A stretch of DNA of 64,000 nucleotides from a phage: NCBI GenBank assembly GCA_026165385.1, contig GCA_026165385.1_4524.1, one strand, 5' to 3'. Under the pieces are notes generated by a model, which worked only from the letters and a program-made list of their open reading frames with translations, made no database searches and had not been told where the DNA came from. The translations under genes were made by a program, and so were the position numbers. Numbering within the stretch: the first letter of the stretch is position 1; every line of letters starts with the position of its first letter. Below, piece after piece: positions 8,497-64,000 of the stretch.

Positions 8497-8526
8497 ATAG
8501 TATCACATACCAAATACGTTGTAAAC
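8497..8526 (-). promoter_or_regulatory. Early-type promoter (GTTTAC-N18-TACTAT) for the 89 aa ORF
   Basis: Minus strand GTTTAC...TACTAT about 30 nt upstream of the ATG at 8466. Confidence 0.55.
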
Positions 8527-24124: not shown

Positions 24125-24154
24125 ATAGTATCACACATCCATGTGTTTGTAAAC
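24125..24154 (-). promoter_or_regulatory. Early-type promoter (GTTTAC-N18-TACTAT) upstream of ORF 23802..24095
   Basis: Minus-strand motif abutting the alt stop codon. Confidence 0.55.
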
Positions 24155-30676: not shown

Positions 30677-30705
30677 ATAATAACATATCCTGTACCAAAG
30701 TAAAC
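30677..30705 (-). promoter_or_regulatory. Early-type promoter (GTTTAC-N17-TATTAT) upstream of ORF 30270..30635
   Basis: Minus-strand motif; the -10 is flanked by an 8-bp inverted repeat GGTACAGG/CCTGTACC. Confidence 0.5.
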
Positions 30706-31121: not shown

Positions 31122-31150
31122 ATAGTAACACATCCTACAGGAGAGTAAAC
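31122..31150 (-). promoter_or_regulatory. Early-type promoter (GTTTAC-N17-TACTAT) upstream of ORF 30709..31080
   Basis: Minus-strand motif. Confidence 0.55.
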
Positions 31151-34705: not shown

Positions 34706-34735
34706 ATAGTATCACAACTCCACCATGTTGTAAAC
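34706..34735 (-). promoter_or_regulatory. Early-type promoter (GTTTAC-N18-TACTAT) upstream of ORF 34440..34676
   Basis: Minus-strand motif. Confidence 0.55.
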
Positions 34736-36803: not shown

Positions 36804-36860
36804 TTAGATTTCCTCAGTTATCCATAGGAGCATTATACTCTGCTCCCGAGAGTTTGTAAA

Positions 36861-38237: not shown

Positions 38238-38267
38238 ATAGTAACACCTTCCTTGGTGTTTGTAAAC
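38238..38267 (-). promoter_or_regulatory. Early-type promoter (GTTTAC-N18-TACTAT) upstream of alc
   Basis: Minus-strand motif abutting the rnlA stop. Confidence 0.55.
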
Positions 38268-39403: not shown

Positions 39404-39449
39404 TCAGTTAGTTTTTTTAAATTGTACCACAATCCTTGTGGTGTGTAAA

Positions 39450-45167: not shown

Positions 45168-45416
45168 TTATTTCCTCAGATTTTTCTTAACAACTTTCCA
45201 ATCAGCTTTAAACGATTCAACATCAGAGTGGTGAATCCAGAATCCTGCGCTTTCACCATCTTCGTAGAGTGGACATCCATCACATTCTTCGTTCCAACCC
45301 ATTTCACGTAAAGCTTCTTCAGCTTGTTCAAGGAGTTCAGCGTCTTTACCAACGATGTTGAAGTACCATTTACCTTTAACTTCAGAATCGTTAATGCTTT
45401 GGCGTTGTAATCTCAT
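45168..45416 (-). CDS. Hypothetical protein (frd.1 position)
   Basis: 82 aa ORF with an early promoter and Shine-Dalgarno upstream. Confidence 0.5.
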   Translation of the reverse strand: MRLQRQSINDSEVKGKWYFNIVGKDAELLEQAEEALREMGWNEECDGCPLYEDGESAGFWIHHSDVESFKADWKVVKKNLRK

Positions 45417-45442
45417 TTTATTCTCCTCTTGATGATAGGACT

Positions 45443-45472
45443 ACTATAACATAGCCCTATCATGGTGTAAAC
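45443..45472 (-). promoter_or_regulatory. Early-type promoter (GTTTAC-N18-TATAGT) upstream of ORF 45168..45416
   Basis: Minus-strand motif. Confidence 0.5.
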
Positions 45473-45858
45473 TACTTTTTAAAAGTTTTTTGTAAAAGTT
45501 CAATGATTTCATCGACGTTGGTTTTATCTACAACACAATGAATTTTTGTTACACCCAAATCTATACCTTCGTTAACCTGTTGAGGTTTTTCTAATGTTAC
45601 CTCGGTAAAGTATTTGAATTCTTCAGAATAAATCTCAAAATACGTCTCAAGTGGTCCACCTGCGCTGTATTCAGTGCCGTCTTCCATAGTTACACGTACC
45701 ACACATTCACCGGCGCAATCGTCACTTTCTATTTCGTTGACAACAAAACTAGGTCCGTGCTTCTCTATTAATTTTAGCATCATTGCGTTGCAACGGCATT
45801 CGTTGGCAAAGTCATTTTTAGATAAAGGGTTAATGATGTACGTTTTTCCGACTTCCAT
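45472..45858 (-). CDS. Hypothetical protein (frd.2 position)
   Basis: 128 aa ORF with an early promoter and Shine-Dalgarno upstream. Confidence 0.5.
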   Translation of the reverse strand: MEVGKTYIINPLSKNDFANECRCNAMMLKLIEKHGPSFVVNEIESDDCAGECVVRVTMEDGTEYSAGGPLETYFEIYSEEFKYFTEVTLEKPQQVNEGIDLGVTKIHCVVDKTNVDEIIELLQKTFKK

Positions 45859-45888
45859 TTTGATTTCCTCGTTTGTTTTGATAGGTCT

Positions 45889-45917
45889 ATAATATCATAC
45901 CTAGAGAAGAAGTAAAC
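45889..45917 (-). promoter_or_regulatory. Early-type promoter (GTTTAC-N17-TATTAT) upstream of ORF 45472..45858
   Basis: Minus-strand motif; shares the GATATTATAGACCTATCAAAACAAA leader with the motA promoters. Confidence 0.55.
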
Positions 45918-45948
45918 AACTTTTTTGGCAATTTACAGATACTCAAAA

Positions 45949-45966
45949 GGGAGACCGAAGTCTCCC
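45949..45966 (-). terminator. UUCG-tetraloop terminator downstream of gene 32
   Basis: GGGAGAC-CGAA-GTCTCCC 7 nt after the gene 32 stop. Confidence 0.7.
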
Positions 45967-45972
45967 AATTTA

Positions 45973-46875
45973 TTATAGACCAGCTAACAGGTCATCGAGG
46001 TCGCCATCATCAGAGGATGAGGTAGAGCTCATGAAGTCATCTTCAGTTTTTGCAGAACTAAAGGCTTCCATGTCTTTATCAAAATCGTCAAGGTCAGAAG
46101 CAACTTTATCTGCAACAGAAGCTGCTGCGGCTGCTGCACCACCAAGAGCGGCAGTACCAAGAACCTTAGCGAAAGATTCATTTAATTTTTCAAAGGATTT
46201 GAACTGGTCTTTAGCCGTCAAAGTAGTAAGGTCTACCATCTGGTCATATAGTTCTTTCTGGAATGCTTCGTCATTAATACGAGGAATTTCAGATTGACCC
46301 AAGAATTTAGATTCGTCATAGTTGCTAAAACCGGAAACCTGCTTAGCTTTCAGAACGAAGTTAGCACCTTCAAATGGGCAAGTAACATCAACTGGAGTTT
46401 CACCCATTTCGGTATCAACTGCAATCATTGCATTGATTTTGTCCCAAATCTTTTTACCGAAACGATATTTAAATACTTTACCTTCGTTATCTGGAGCTTG
46501 AGGGTCTTTAACAACCAGAATATTGGCCCAATAAGAGGTTTTACGTTTCAGTTGAGAATATTCAGCTTTGTTGGTATTGTACAGGTCATTTTTACTAATG
46601 TACTGACATACAGGACAAGAGTCGTAATCACCATGTGTAGAAGAGCAATTTTCAATATACCATTTACCATTTTTCTTGAAACCGTGGTTAACAAGAATTG
46701 CAAATGGTAGTGCATCATCAGTTTTTGCTGGCAAGAAACGAATTACCGCTTGACCATTACCGGATGCATCTAGCTTCAGCTTCCATTCGCCTTTATCTTC
46801 TGAAGAGAAACCTTTGTTACCATTCAGTTTAGCCATTTGAGCAGCGAGGTCAGCAGTAGATTTACGTTTAAACAT
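45973..46875 (-). CDS. 32: Single-stranded DNA-binding protein gp32
   Basis: 300 aa; matches T4 gp32 ([36 protein letters not shown]...), acidic C-terminus. Confidence 0.97.
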
Positions 46876-59997: not shown

Positions 59998-60043
59998 AAC
60001 GTTTTATTCATTCCATTTGGTTGATATGAGTATAGTACCATTA

Positions 60044-60259
60044 TCAGTGTTGATTGTAAACAGCTTTTTCTACACTTTTAACGTAATCAGTGTAGTCTTC
60101 CTGTTCATACGAGTGTAAGGCCAAGAACGTGGCTAATAGTTCATTATAGACTAAAGCCTCACGCTCACGTTCTGCCTCTACTACGTTCTGTAGATTATGG
60201 CTCATATCATTCCTTATAACTATCAATGTAGTCCTGTATGTCAAAGAATGACATTTCAT
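60044..60259 (-). CDS. Hypothetical protein
   Basis: 71 aa ORF; the true start may be internal (MSHNLQ). Confidence 0.4.
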   Translation of the reverse strand: MKCHSLTYRTTLIVIRNDMSHNLQNVVEAEREREALVYNELLATFLALHSYEQEDYTDYVKSVEKAVYNQH

Positions 60260-61858: not shown

Positions 61859-62491
61859 TCACAGTACGTTAGTTACAAGGGTAATGATTTCTTTGGACAC
61901 ATTAGGGAAGTCAATGTAAGTATATTTACCACCGATCTTAATCTTAACATCATTTTCAAGAGAAGTAAACAGCTTTGATTCAGTTTCTGACATGTTGTAT
62001 GCAAAGATTCTAAGAGAACCATCTCGACGAATTTCAATTTGGCGAATACCTAGAACTCGTTTTGCAAATCGAACTTCCAAGTTACTACGGTTTTCACCAA
62101 TTTCTTTAACTTCGACTTTATCTTTAATATTTTCAAAAACAAAGTTTGCCAGTTCATGCATTTCAGGAGTAACTCCACGTGCTTTTCTGGTGTTACGTTT
62201 CTGAAGAAGTTCTGGAGCATTTTCTTGGGCAAAGAGGTCTGCAGCTTTTTGGATAATATCCATTGCTTCGCCTGTTGCTACAAGTCCATCACCGGATTTT
62301 TCGACTAAACCTTTCTTAATCAATACACCAATGTTAGAGTTAACAACTGATGCATTGTATTCTGCTTCCAGAGCTTCACGGACATTGGCAGCAGTGGTGA
62401 AGTTGTTCTTAATGATATAAACCATTATTGTGGCAGTTTTTTCATTCAGAGCGTTTTCAGAAGCTTTGATGATGTAAGTAACTTTAGACAT
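61859..62491 (-). CDS. motA: Middle-transcription activator MotA
   Basis: 210 aa; matches T4 MotA (MSKVTYIIKAS...NSNIGVLIKKGLVEKSGDGL...). Confidence 0.93.
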   Translation of the reverse strand: MSKVTYIIKASENALNEKTATIMVYIIKNNFTTAANVREALEAEYNASVVNSNIGVLIKKGLVEKSGDGLVATGEAMDIIQKAADLFAQENAPELLQKRNTRKARGVTPEMHELANFVFENIKDKVEVKEIGENRSNLEVRFAKRVLGIRQIEIRRDGSLRIFAYNMSETESKLFTSLENDVKIKIGGKYTYIDFPNVSKEIITLVTNVL

Positions 62492-62550
62492 TTTATTTCT
62501 CCAATTTGGTTGTTTTGTTTTGATAGGTCTATAATATCATGTTTGAAGCA
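62483..62550 (-). repeat. 68-bp direct repeat, copy A (motA promoter, leader and first codons)
   Basis: Identical to 62805..62872; includes the ATG and first three codons of motA. Confidence 0.85.
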
Positions 62551-62559
62551 AAAGTAAAC
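62531..62559 (-). promoter_or_regulatory. Early/middle promoter upstream of motA (GTTTAC, TGCTTCA, TATTAT)
   Basis: Minus strand GTTTACtttTGCTTCAaacatgatatTATTAT; part of the duplicated cassette. Confidence 0.55.
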
Positions 62560-62597
62560 TTTATTTTGGGCTCTTTTTCCAAAAGCCCTGGTAAAAT

Positions 62598-62813
62598 TTA
62601 CAAACTCATTTCTTTAATAAGGTCAATAAGTTTTGCCTTTTTAGAACGAAGCTTTTCTAAACGATGTCCATTTGAACCGCGAACCACTAAAGAATTGATT
62701 TCAACTTCTAAGAAATTTAATTCTTCAACAAGTGCTTTACGGGGAGCATTCATACCAGGTTTAACTTTACCGAAACGAGTAGTTGTGTTTTGGGTTAATT
62801 TCATTTTAGACAT
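62598..62813 (-). CDS. Hypothetical basic protein (52.1 position)
   Basis: 71 aa ORF; shares promoter, leader and first three codons (MSK) with motA through a duplicated cassette. Confidence 0.5.
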   Translation of the reverse strand: MSKMKLTQNTTTRFGKVKPGMNAPRKALVEELNFLEVEINSLVVRGSNGHRLEKLRSKKAKLIDLIKEMSL

Positions 62814-62872
62814 TTTATTTCTCCAATTTGGTTGTTTTGTTTTGATAGGTCTATAATATCATGTTTGAAGCA
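62805..62872 (-). repeat. 68-bp direct repeat, copy B (52.1-like ORF promoter, leader and first codons)
   Basis: Identical to 62483..62550; a shorter 26-bp core recurs at 45873..45898. Confidence 0.85.
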
Positions 62873-62881
62873 CGTGTAAAC
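62853..62881 (-). promoter_or_regulatory. Early/middle promoter upstream of the 52.1-like ORF (duplicate of the motA promoter)
   Basis: Minus strand GTTTACacgTGCTTCAaacatgatatTATTAT; second copy of the cassette. Confidence 0.55.
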
Positions 62882-62906: not shown

Positions 62907-62922
62907 GGGAGCCGAAGCTCCC
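62907..62922 (-). terminator. UUCG-tetraloop terminator downstream of gene 52
   Basis: GGGAGC-CGAA-GCTCCC with a U-rich tract following on the minus strand. Confidence 0.65.
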
Positions 62923-62998
62923 TAATCATGTTTGCCCAACCAATATAGCCAAATCACTAGTGCAGCTATTGCACCGAGAAATCCTAAGGCTAGGGCAC

Positions 62999-64000
62999 TC
63001 AAAGTGCCTCCAAGTCTTTAGTGTACTCTGTCACAACATCAGTAGACTTCCAATACTCATTTTCTTCTTTCTTAGCTTTAGCTTCTTCTGCTAGTTTACG
63101 TGCTTCGTCGGAAGTGATATGGAAGATGTTAAGACCTACCAGTTTATCGACATGTTCTTTATACATTTCGATTTGTGCTAGCTCTTCAGTCAAAGCTTTA
63201 CGAGTCTTGCCCTGAATCACAATTTCACCGTTGATAACTTTTTTGATGAAGTGTGCCTTAGCAAAAGCAAGTTTAAATGCTTTTTCAGATTCAAGGATTT
63301 TGTTGTCAATACGTTTCTGAACGTAAGTCTTACGGACTTCAACAAAATCTTTGATTAAGTCCACTACGTTATCGTAGACAGCTAATTTACCCTTTTCATT
63401 AATCACTGTGATGTTTTGTGAACGACGTTCGATGAGACTAAAATCTTTCATGATTTTTTCATGACGTAGCTCTTCATCATCAGGAAGCGAGTACTCTTTA
63501 CGGAACTTCACCTTAAACCCAAAGCCGTGTTCACCACAATCATCTTCCCATGAGATTAGACCTTTGTCTTCTAACGGGTCAAGAACCTTACTCACATACG
63601 TTTCACGGTCGAATTTATATGGGATTTCAGTTATCTGCATTTGAGTGCGAGATGTGAACTTATATGTTCCGTGAATCTCATAACGCCCATCAACTTCATG
63701 TACTTCACCACGGAATTCCGGGAATTCAACTTTTGGCTTAGTGACATTTTTACCTTGAAGAGCTTGTAATACAGCCTTTTTGACTGATTTAAAACTATGA
63801 GGCAGAATATTTGTTGCGTAACCGGTTGCAATACCAGAGACGCCATTCAAAAGAACTGTCGGAATAATAGGAAGATAGAATTTTGGTGGAATATGTTCTT
63901 TATCTTCATGAGCTGGAGCATATTCAGTATCTTTATATACGTTATAGAAATTTTTACTTACACGAGCAAAAATATAACGAGATGCTGCAGCTTTTTGGAC
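62999..64000 (-). CDS. 52: DNA topoisomerase II medium subunit gp52 (GyrA-like), 3' portion; 5' end beyond window
   Basis: Frame stays open upstream of the track's TTG start to the window edge; own translation gives KFYLPIIPTVLLNGVSGIATGYATN, a GyrA/ParC-type motif. Confidence 0.85.
   Translation of the reverse strand, partial: VQKAAASRYIFARVSKNFYNVYKDTEYAPAHEDKEHIPPKFYLPIIPTVLLNGVSGIATGYATNILPHSFKSVKKAVLQALQGKNVTKPKVEFPEFRGEVHEVDGRYEIHGTYKFTSRTQMQITEIPYKFDRETYVSKVLDPLEDKGLISWEDDCGEHGFGFKVKFRKEYSLPDDEELRHEKIMKDFSLIERRSQNITVINEKGKLAVYDNVVDLIKDFVEVRKTYVQKRIDNKILESEKAFKLAFAKAHFIKKVINGEIVIQGKTRKALTEELAQIEMYKEHVDKLVGLNIFHITSDEARKLAEEAKAKKEENEYWKSTDVVTEYTKDLEAL

Follow-up and report, generated by a model that had tools for sequence, protein, structure and literature searches.

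The stretch analysed here, referred to as the window, is a 64,000-nucleotide (nt) piece of phage DNA (contig GCA_026165385.1_4524.1 of GenBank assembly GCA_026165385.1). The element in question is a promoter-leader-start cassette that occurs twice at its motA locus, once in front of motA itself and once in front of a small open reading frame (ORF) of 71 amino acids (aa), designated ORF71. The source phage is a Mosigvirus, i.e., an RB69-like T-even phage, and a 1.3-kb region of the locus matched 156 phage records at 95-99% identity, the closest being BEU50, PHB12 and F31 (~98%). According to the ORF list, all genes concerned are carried by the minus strand. In the order of transcription, the locus consists of gene 52, a mini-ORF, a hairpin (stem-loop 2, SL2), cassette copy 2, ORF71, another hairpin (SL1), cassette copy 1 and motA:

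62999..63850, minus strand: gene 52, 3' part (topoisomerase II medium subunit), with its stop at 62999; taken from the ORF list and annotated as DNA topoisomerase II in relatives
62922..63002, minus strand: mini-ORF with a hydrophobic product of 26 aa, MSALALGFLGAIAALVIWLYWLGKHD; translation, unannotated
62907..62922, minus strand: SL2 hairpin GGGAGC-UUCG-GCUCCC followed by UUUUGUGCAUUUUU, of intrinsic-terminator form; the stem-loop of the upstream cassette
62853..62881, minus strand: predicted early promoter of the upstream cassette, with -35 GTTTAC(A) at 62881-62875, TGCTTCA at 62872-62866, and TGn plus -10 TGATATTAT at 62861-62853
62805..62872, minus strand: copy 2, the exact 68-bp block, running from the promoter spacer through the -10, a ~33-nt leader and the Shine-Dalgarno sequence (SD) GGAG (62824-62821) to ATG TCT AAA of ORF71
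62598..62813, minus strand: ORF71, a 71-aa ORFan and the cargo of the proposed module (phrog_6200, E = 1e-39)
62568..62588, minus strand: SL1 hairpin GGGCUUUUGGAAAAAGAGCCC, between ORF71 and the downstream promoter
62531..62559, minus strand: predicted early promoter of the motA cassette, with -35 GTTTAC(T) at 62559-62553, TGCTTCA at 62550-62544, and TGn plus -10 at 62539-62531
62483..62550, minus strand: copy 1, the exact 68-bp block, ending with the SD GGAG (62502-62499) and ATG TCT AAA of motA
61859..62491, minus strand: motA, middle-mode transcription activator, 210 aa (Pfam MotA_activ 5e-40 and MotCF 2e-8; phrog_1345 8e-90)

Alignment of the two copies confirmed both the length and the ends of the exact 68-bp duplication that the initial annotation had reported upstream of motA and the 71-aa ORF. 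Positions 62483-62550 and 62805-62872 were identical over exactly 68 nt, and the identity ended precisely at those positions. When mismatches were allowed, a repeat search gave a longer pair of 86 nt, 93% identical and spaced by 322, and blastn within the window returned the pair with an E-value of 1e-34. Read on the coding (minus) strand, the exact block begins with TGCTTCA and ends after codon 3 (ATG TCT AAA). The content ascribed to this block required one correction: the -10, leader, SD and MSK codons indeed lie inside it, whereas the -35 GTTTAC (62881-62876 and 62559-62554) lies outside, three mismatching bases upstream of the exact block and inside the 93% extension.

Each copy follows the same layout, which comprises a hairpin, the -35 GTTTAC, a TGn-extended -10 TATTAT, a leader of ~33 nt, the GGAG SD and ATG-TCT-AAA. 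In the promoter scan, the upstream promoter gave 10/12 matches (TTTACA-16-TATTAT, TG present, predicted +1 ~62846) and the motA promoter 9/12 (TTTACT-16-TATTAT, TG present, predicted +1 ~62524); the +1 was set seven bases past the -10, which yields a leader of 33 nt. The T4-type early-promoter consensus combines GTTTAC at about -36 to -31, TGn, and a -10 with A at -11 and T at -7 (PMC1524935, PMC2988021). GTTTAC, TGn and the -10 were all present here, along with CC at -3/-2 (AGACCTA), where a C-rich -3 to -1 is expected in RB69. With regard to an A/T-rich UP element, copy 2 has TTTTGTGCATTTTTCTCACAAAACA upstream of its -35, and copy 1 has just AAAATAAA between hairpin and -35. The sigma-70 scores, the identical leader, the SD and the first three codons are all in agreement with the description of the repeat as a duplicated promoter-leader-start cassette.

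The leader is A-rich and predicted to be unstructured (-1.7 kcal/mol, z = -0.1), and on these values a structured leader or riboswitch-like element was ruled out. GGAG is placed 7 nt ahead of the ATG in both copies. The predicted fold of SL2 has an energy of -15.5 kcal/mol (z = -4.05) and is followed by a U-run; this hairpin is an annotated terminator in SA79RD, and it would terminate the gene 52 transcript coming from upstream. The SL2 loop was also seen to carry an inversion polymorphism, in that it reads UUCG in the source phage and most relatives and CGAA, the reverse complement, in RB69 (about 1449-1464) and UGJNEcP2, with the same stem. SL1, with a predicted energy of -12.2 kcal/mol (z = -2.9), is followed by AAAAUAAAG and has no U-tract. 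It is kept with changes in JS98 (AGAGCTCTTGAAAAAGAGCTC), and WebGeSTer calls a terminator at SL1 in SA79RD, yet the modelled element would act at best as an attenuator or 3'-end stabiliser. Since SL1 is devoid of a U-tract, it is probably leaky, and motA is then probably also reached by read-through from the upstream promoter.

Comparison with relatives revealed a presence/absence polymorphism of one repeat period. The spacer between gene 52 and motA is 507 nt long here vs 185 nt in RB69 and phi25-307, and the difference, exactly 322, equals one repeat period. RB69 and phi25-307 both have a single cassette, in which the left flank of copy 2 is joined to the right flank of copy 1. About half of the ~156 Mosigvirus-level records are without ORF71 (77 have the ORF71 body), and these ORF71-less genomes may most simply be regarded as deletions. 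The 68-nt exact pair is also found in PHB12, and the corresponding pair in EP02SG is 56 nt long; judged by BLAST identity, about four other records resemble them. BEU50, the closest record overall, has just a 37-nt exact block, and in JS09 and HX01 the repeat consists of patches of 37 bp and 22 bp. This distribution suggests that the 68-bp exactness is recent and uncommon.

Two leader alleles were distinguished, A (CAAAACAAAACAACCAAATTGGAG) and B (CAAAACAAATACTAATTTGGAG), and they are distributed over the two positions in a mosaic fashion. The combinations were as follows, with haplotype numbers that are estimates from BLAST identity bands:

Most phages with ORF71: leader A on ORF71 and leader B on motA (BEU50, SA79RD, JN02, SHSML-52-1 and ECCR664 read directly; JS09 and HX01 by BLAST identity)
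Phages without ORF71, common (roughly 86 records): leader A on motA (phi25-307, mobillu and O157tp3 read directly; moha, FL18 and others by BLAST identity)
Phages without ORF71, rare: leader B on motA (RB69)
Long-repeat state (an estimated ~6/77 of the records with ORF71): leader A on both ORF71 and motA (the window, PHB12, EP02SG and UGJNEcP2 read directly; NHEP10, NHEP11 and UGJNEcP1 by BLAST identity)

To arrive at these combinations, crossovers or conversion tracts would be needed at different points within the cassette. Further traces of exchange were seen at both of its ends. In most genomes the triplet that follows the copy 2 -35 reads ACG, ATG or ATA; SA79RD, JN02 and UGJNEcP2 have TTT there, as in copy 1. 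At the other end, ORF71 begins with MSK here, in DNA identical to that of motA, vs MNK in JS98; the exchange would thus have reached the coding sequence, with the first codons of motA overwriting those of ORF71. In JS98 itself, a member of the other genus (Dhakavirus) in which the arrangement occurs, a stretch of 41 nt is the same in the two promoter copies, both of which contain the genus-specific TGCTTTA and GATACTAT. The DNA of motA is 71.9% identical between the source phage and JS98, and that of ORF71 71.3%, which indicates that the two-cassette layout probably predates the split of the genera.

The slot between the two cassettes can also be occupied by other genes. A scan of IMG/VR with the promoter core returned 12 stretches, mostly Dhakavirus-like, with too few Mosigviruses for statistics. 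Amongst the Dhakavirus-like contigs, replacement of the slot gene was observed in L016, where positions 625-852 encode a 75-aa member of phrog_10955, and in L010, where positions 1108-1329 encode a 73-aa member of phrog_13302. The three slot occupants (phrog_6200, phrog_10955 and phrog_13302) are mutually unrelated, and the same cassette stands ahead of each. Contigs L008, L009 and L011 have no gene in the slot and show a chimeric SL1/SL2 hairpin joint, 'agagctcttgaaaaagag|tgcaaaaaagtgtttac', with the same cassette at the junction. Altogether, the 322-bp-shorter relatives, the mosaic leader alleles and the unrelated ORFans in the slot bear out the proposal of the initial annotation that the repeat offers homology for recombination between the genes.

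An additional cassette was noticed in the IMG/VR contigs L006, L012, L013 and L014, where it has the spacer CCTCCTTT in place of TGCTTT and precedes an unrelated gene whose product begins with MDNYGEL. The leader of this cassette (CAAAACAACAGAGTGAA) equals the leader on the JS98 homologue of ORF71. The presence of one leader on the JS98 ORF71 cassette and the MDNYGEL cassette indicates that leader segments are common to distant loci.

ORF71 showed the pattern of substitutions of a coding sequence. Between the source phage and JS98, 53/71 aa are identical, DNA differences fall at codon positions 1/2/3 in the numbers 15/14/33, and the differing codons comprise 21 synonymous and 18 non-synonymous changes. 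The frame is open in both phages, with 8-10 stops in the other frames. On these evolutionary grounds, the sequences point to ORF71 being a real gene. It gave no Pfam match and no PDB sequence match, and phrog_6200 is a family of unknown function. Of the 94 records that contain the ORF71 body, 77 are of Mosigvirus level and 17 of Dhakavirus level (the latter ~75% identical). By tblastn and blastn it occupies one place per record, which in the records inspected directly was between gene 52 and motA. A deviating record was ECCR664 (L020, about 811-900), whose ORF71 cassette contains an extra leader A (CAAAAACAAAAC) and a G in the TGn region, and in which tblastn covered residues 1-68 of ORF71 only, at 87%. 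This anomaly may be a frameshift or a sequencing error in the record.

We consider it probable, with a likelihood of about 85%, that the two motA-region copies represent adjacent T-even early-promoter cassettes of the promoter-early stem-loop (PeSL) type, which have become near-identical through homologous recombination and not through function alone. In such an arrangement the upstream cassette would drive ORF71 and the downstream cassette motA, and, judging from T4 orthology, both genes would be made right after infection by the unmodified host RNA polymerase. The two genes would have one translation-initiation region and, by extension, equal sensitivity to RegB in GGAG, so that a shared early expression and RegB sensitivity of ORF71 and motA is plausible. 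The hairpins would end or insulate the upstream transcript. Together with one cassette, the ORFan would constitute a 322-bp module between direct repeats, which could be excised or re-inserted by a crossover anywhere in the repeat. In the lineage of the source phage, the usual ORF71 leader allele would also have been placed on motA, through gene conversion or by crossing over with a co-infecting relative devoid of ORF71; which way each recombination event went is what we infer from the sequences compared.

PeSLs have been described as small cassettes consisting of a strong sigma-70-like promoter, a stem-loop, an SD and a start codon, located mostly before ORFans (PMC2839356, PMC4122927), and they were proposed, with evidence from mini-circles, to mediate modular shuffling (PMC2839356). 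The early promoter, the stable stem-loop (predicted), the SD and start codon at the 3' end, and the indels or replacements between relatives that characterize PeSLs were all found at the motA locus. Both motA-region copies combine a hairpin, a sigma-70-like early promoter, an SD and a start codon, and they belong to a dispersed, multi-copy family that lies mostly ahead of ORFans. A parallel to the filled and empty slot exists in RB49, in which ORFan192 is flanked by two PeSLs, and its sister phage phi1, which has a single PeSL (Arbiol et al. 2010, PMC2839356; Comeau et al. 2014, PMC4122927); similarly, an ORFan lies between two cassettes here and close relatives (RB69 and phi25-307) have one cassette. 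PeSL crossovers were mapped between the -10 and the SD or ATG, and the mini-circles measured ~400 bp (PMC2839356). The crossovers deduced here would likewise fall between the -10 and the SD or ATG, and the predicted excised module would be a few hundred bp long (322 bp). In T4, homology of <50 bp suffices for recombination (PMC2839356). Two differences from the described cassettes are that the downstream partner here is motA, the master activator of middle transcription, and not an ORFan, and that the homology extends three codons into the coding sequences.

The locus was also compared with that of T4, where gene 52 is followed by motA.1, a GC hairpin, a single early promoter and motA, with no gene between hairpin and motA. 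As in T4, gene 52, an ORF for a small membrane protein and a GC hairpin precede the cassettes. The copy 2 flank CACAAAACAGTTTAC can be aligned with CACAAAACGGTTTAC, which flanks the motA promoter of T4, the upstream CACAAAAC(A/G)GTTTAC is conserved, as are TGn and TA(C/T)TAT, and the downstream motif reads TACAACTATCAA in T4 and TAGACCTATCAA in the window. The region from -10 to +1 can be aligned as well, and the GGAG SD and ATG TCT AAA GT are in common. In contrast, T4 has a single copy, with a spacer of 17 nt and no TGCTTCA. The alignments indicate that both cassettes are orthologous to the T4 motA early promoter. The small membrane ORF of T4, the 49-aa motA.1, lies at the position of the mini-ORF, which makes the latter a positional analogue of motA.1. 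The mini-ORF starts with a TTG within the stop of gene 52 (TTGA), so that the two overlap, and is preceded by GGAGG. It is kept in RB69 and phi25-307, and JS98 has an analogue of 34 aa with an ATG at the same place. The product MSALALGFLGAIAALVIWLYWLGKHD had no PHROG match.

Several observations count against the PeSL interpretation or weaken parts of it. Precise excision would be scarless, and the ORF71-less genomes could also be lineages in which the gene was never inserted. ORF71 was found by tblastn and blastn at no other locus, a single genomic context that gives no indication of mobility of the cargo. The spacer is 16 nt here vs 17 in the published consensus, and the hairpin of the motA cassette, SL1, is without a U-tract, which leaves the terminator part of the PeSL definition half satisfied. 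As for RegB, motA is expressed early in T4 and RegB cuts its mRNA in the SD (PMC2988021; Hinton 2010), and strong RegB sites have the consensus GGAGRAYARAA (PMC3014915); the context found here, GGAGAAAUAAA, matches it at 9/11 positions, next to a leader that is unstructured. Promoter activity and early timing are properties that we infer from sequence and T4 orthology. Finally, the promoter core is identical at 38/41 positions (93%) between the genera and the coding flanks at ~71-72%, which indicates that selection contributes to the identity of the paralogues.

According to one rival explanation, the identity reflects purifying selection alone, acting on an optimal promoter and leader derived from one old duplication, without ongoing recombination. 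The conservation of the core between Mosigvirus and Dhakavirus, set against ~72% for motA and ~71% for ORF71, does indicate strong constraint. However, viable phages exist with allele A and with allele B on motA, which shows that more than one leader sequence is tolerated, and every combination is seen across the two positions. The identity also runs, in some genomes, through an unconstrained spacer triplet and through the first three codons (MSK vs MNK in JS98), the indel amounts to exactly one repeat period, and the slot is held by different ORFans. Selection as the sole cause was accordingly judged improbable.

Another explanation would make the cassettes MotA-dependent middle promoters, or dual early/middle promoters, with motA and its neighbour positively autoregulated through TGCTTCA; the initial annotation had likened this heptamer to a MotA box. 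TGCTTCA does agree with the core of the published box consensus, (a/t)(a/t)(a/t)TGCTT(t/c)A (PMC2988021). It is kept in both copies, RB69 and Marfa (TGCTTTA in Dhakavirus), and none of the remaining 13 promoter matches of the window has it. The likeness to T4 middle promoters includes a good -10 with TGn, but the geometry is not, by the published definition, that of sigma appropriation. Between the end of the box and the -10 there are 7 bp vs the required 12±1 bp, with the box centred at ~-23 vs -30 (PMC2988021, PMC1524935), and no TAnnnT is present 11-13 bp downstream of the box, the hexamers there being ATAGAC, TAGACC and AGACCT. In middle promoters, GCTT occupies -30 to -27 and the box replaces the -35 (PMC2988021, PMC1524935); here GCTT lies at about -25 to -22 and a full GTTTAC -35 is present, whereas middle promoters are without a -35. 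The three bases before TGCTTCA are TTT in copy 1 and ACG in copy 2, and the full 10-nt MotA box consensus fits copy 1 only. In addition, the motA promoter of T4 has no TGCTTCA box, and motA of T4 is an early gene (PMC2988021). With 7 bp in place of 12±1 and no alternative -10, the middle-promoter explanation was rejected on geometry as very unlikely, and the likening to a MotA box did not hold in the sense of a MotA-dependent promoter.

A different role for the heptamer can be envisaged, although we regard it as a long shot. TGCTT(C/T)A is located at about -26 to -20, in the spacer, in the motA-slot promoters of Mosigvirus, Dhakavirus and Marfavirus, and it might be an operator for feedback of MotA on its own synthesis and on that of the slot gene. 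If so, MotA bound at this half-turn-displaced site could switch the early promoter off, which would link MotA to the still unexplained shut-off of early transcription in T-even phages.

The weakest alternative holds that the motA 5' region was recently duplicated in tandem, de novo, in the source phage, or that the repeat is an assembly artefact. In its favour, the 68-bp identity is perfect and the genome is ~2% from its nearest relatives. It was rejected as scarcely credible because the two-cassette layout with ORF71 and SL1 is present in 94 records and, at 71% identity, in another genus, because the 68-nt pair is found independently in PHB12, and because only the leader segment departs from the common haplotype.

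PeSL-mediated modular shuffling was already described in 2010 and 2014, and the mechanism favoured here is therefore not new. The motA-locus case in Mosigvirus and Dhakavirus is a local instance of the described PeSL class that is absent from the PeSL papers: RB69 and motA are not mentioned in either of them, and JS98 appears once, for the gene 43 locus (PMC2839356, PMC4122927). A literature search likewise returned no description of a motA-region duplication in RB69-like phages. What the locus offers is a clean natural example: among >150 sequenced relatives, sites with and without the gene, other cargos and chimeric leaders can be seen, with all junctions inside ~70 bp. The cassette before a key regulator, motA, takes part in the exchange, and a new ORFan arriving in the slot would inherit the motA promoter, the leader and even the first three codons. 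Given direct repeats of 68 bp, spontaneous 322-bp deletions are predicted to arise in stocks of the source phage, and annotators should expect presence or absence of ORF71 among otherwise near-identical therapeutic Mosigviruses.

The cassette family extends beyond the motA locus. Allowing <=3 mismatches, the 26-mer core had 3 matches in the window vs 0.00 expected (100 shuffles), the third being a partial member:

45872..45917, minus strand: third, partial family member, a predicted early promoter GTTTAC-N17-TATTAT before an frd.2-like gene, with an exact 27-nt core in common with both motA-region copies

The recurrence of a 26-bp core upstream of ORF 45472..45858 had been pointed out before and was found again, with an exact match (45872-45898) that is 27 nt long and thus one base longer than claimed. 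This core spans the TGn, the -10, the +1 region and the first leader bases. The third copy is preceded by a UUCG hairpin, GGAGACUUCGGUCUCC, with a U-run (45965-45950), and lies between gene 32, which is upstream, and ORF 45472-45858 (Pfam FRD2, 8e-33). Conservation around it differed from that of the motA locus: for positions 45300-46300 (gene 32 / frd.2), 8 records matched at 95-99% and most Mosigvirus relatives at 83-88%, which makes this region far more mosaic than the motA region. The mosaic pattern suggests a replaced segment beside the third cassette copy.

For comparison, 57 early promoters were predicted in RB69 by Nolan et al. (PMC1524935), and the consensus of T4/PST PeSL promoters is TTTACW-N17-TAYWAT (PMC4122927). 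A search of the window with TTTACW-N15-17-TAYWAT returned 15 matches vs 1.2 in shuffles, 14 of them on the minus (early-gene) strand. Most lie 30-45 nt before an SD and ATG, and several share a downstream AGAC(C/T)T(A/G)T. Besides the cassettes described above, the following early-promoter/PeSL-like matches were found, all of them minus-strand and followed, at a distance of 30-45 nt, by an SD and ATG:

8497-8525, minus strand: early-promoter/PeSL-like match
24125-24153, minus strand: early-promoter/PeSL-like match
30677-30704, minus strand: early-promoter/PeSL-like match
31122-31149, minus strand: early-promoter/PeSL-like match
34706-34734, minus strand: early-promoter/PeSL-like match
36832-36860, minus strand: early-promoter/PeSL-like match
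38238-38266, minus strand: early-promoter/PeSL-like match
39421-39449, minus strand: early-promoter/PeSL-like match
60032-60060, minus strand: early-promoter/PeSL-like match

Two of these, at 30704 and 31149, are 445 bp apart and both start with GGAGAATAAAATGAAC; as neighbours, they may constitute another pair like the motA-region cassettes.

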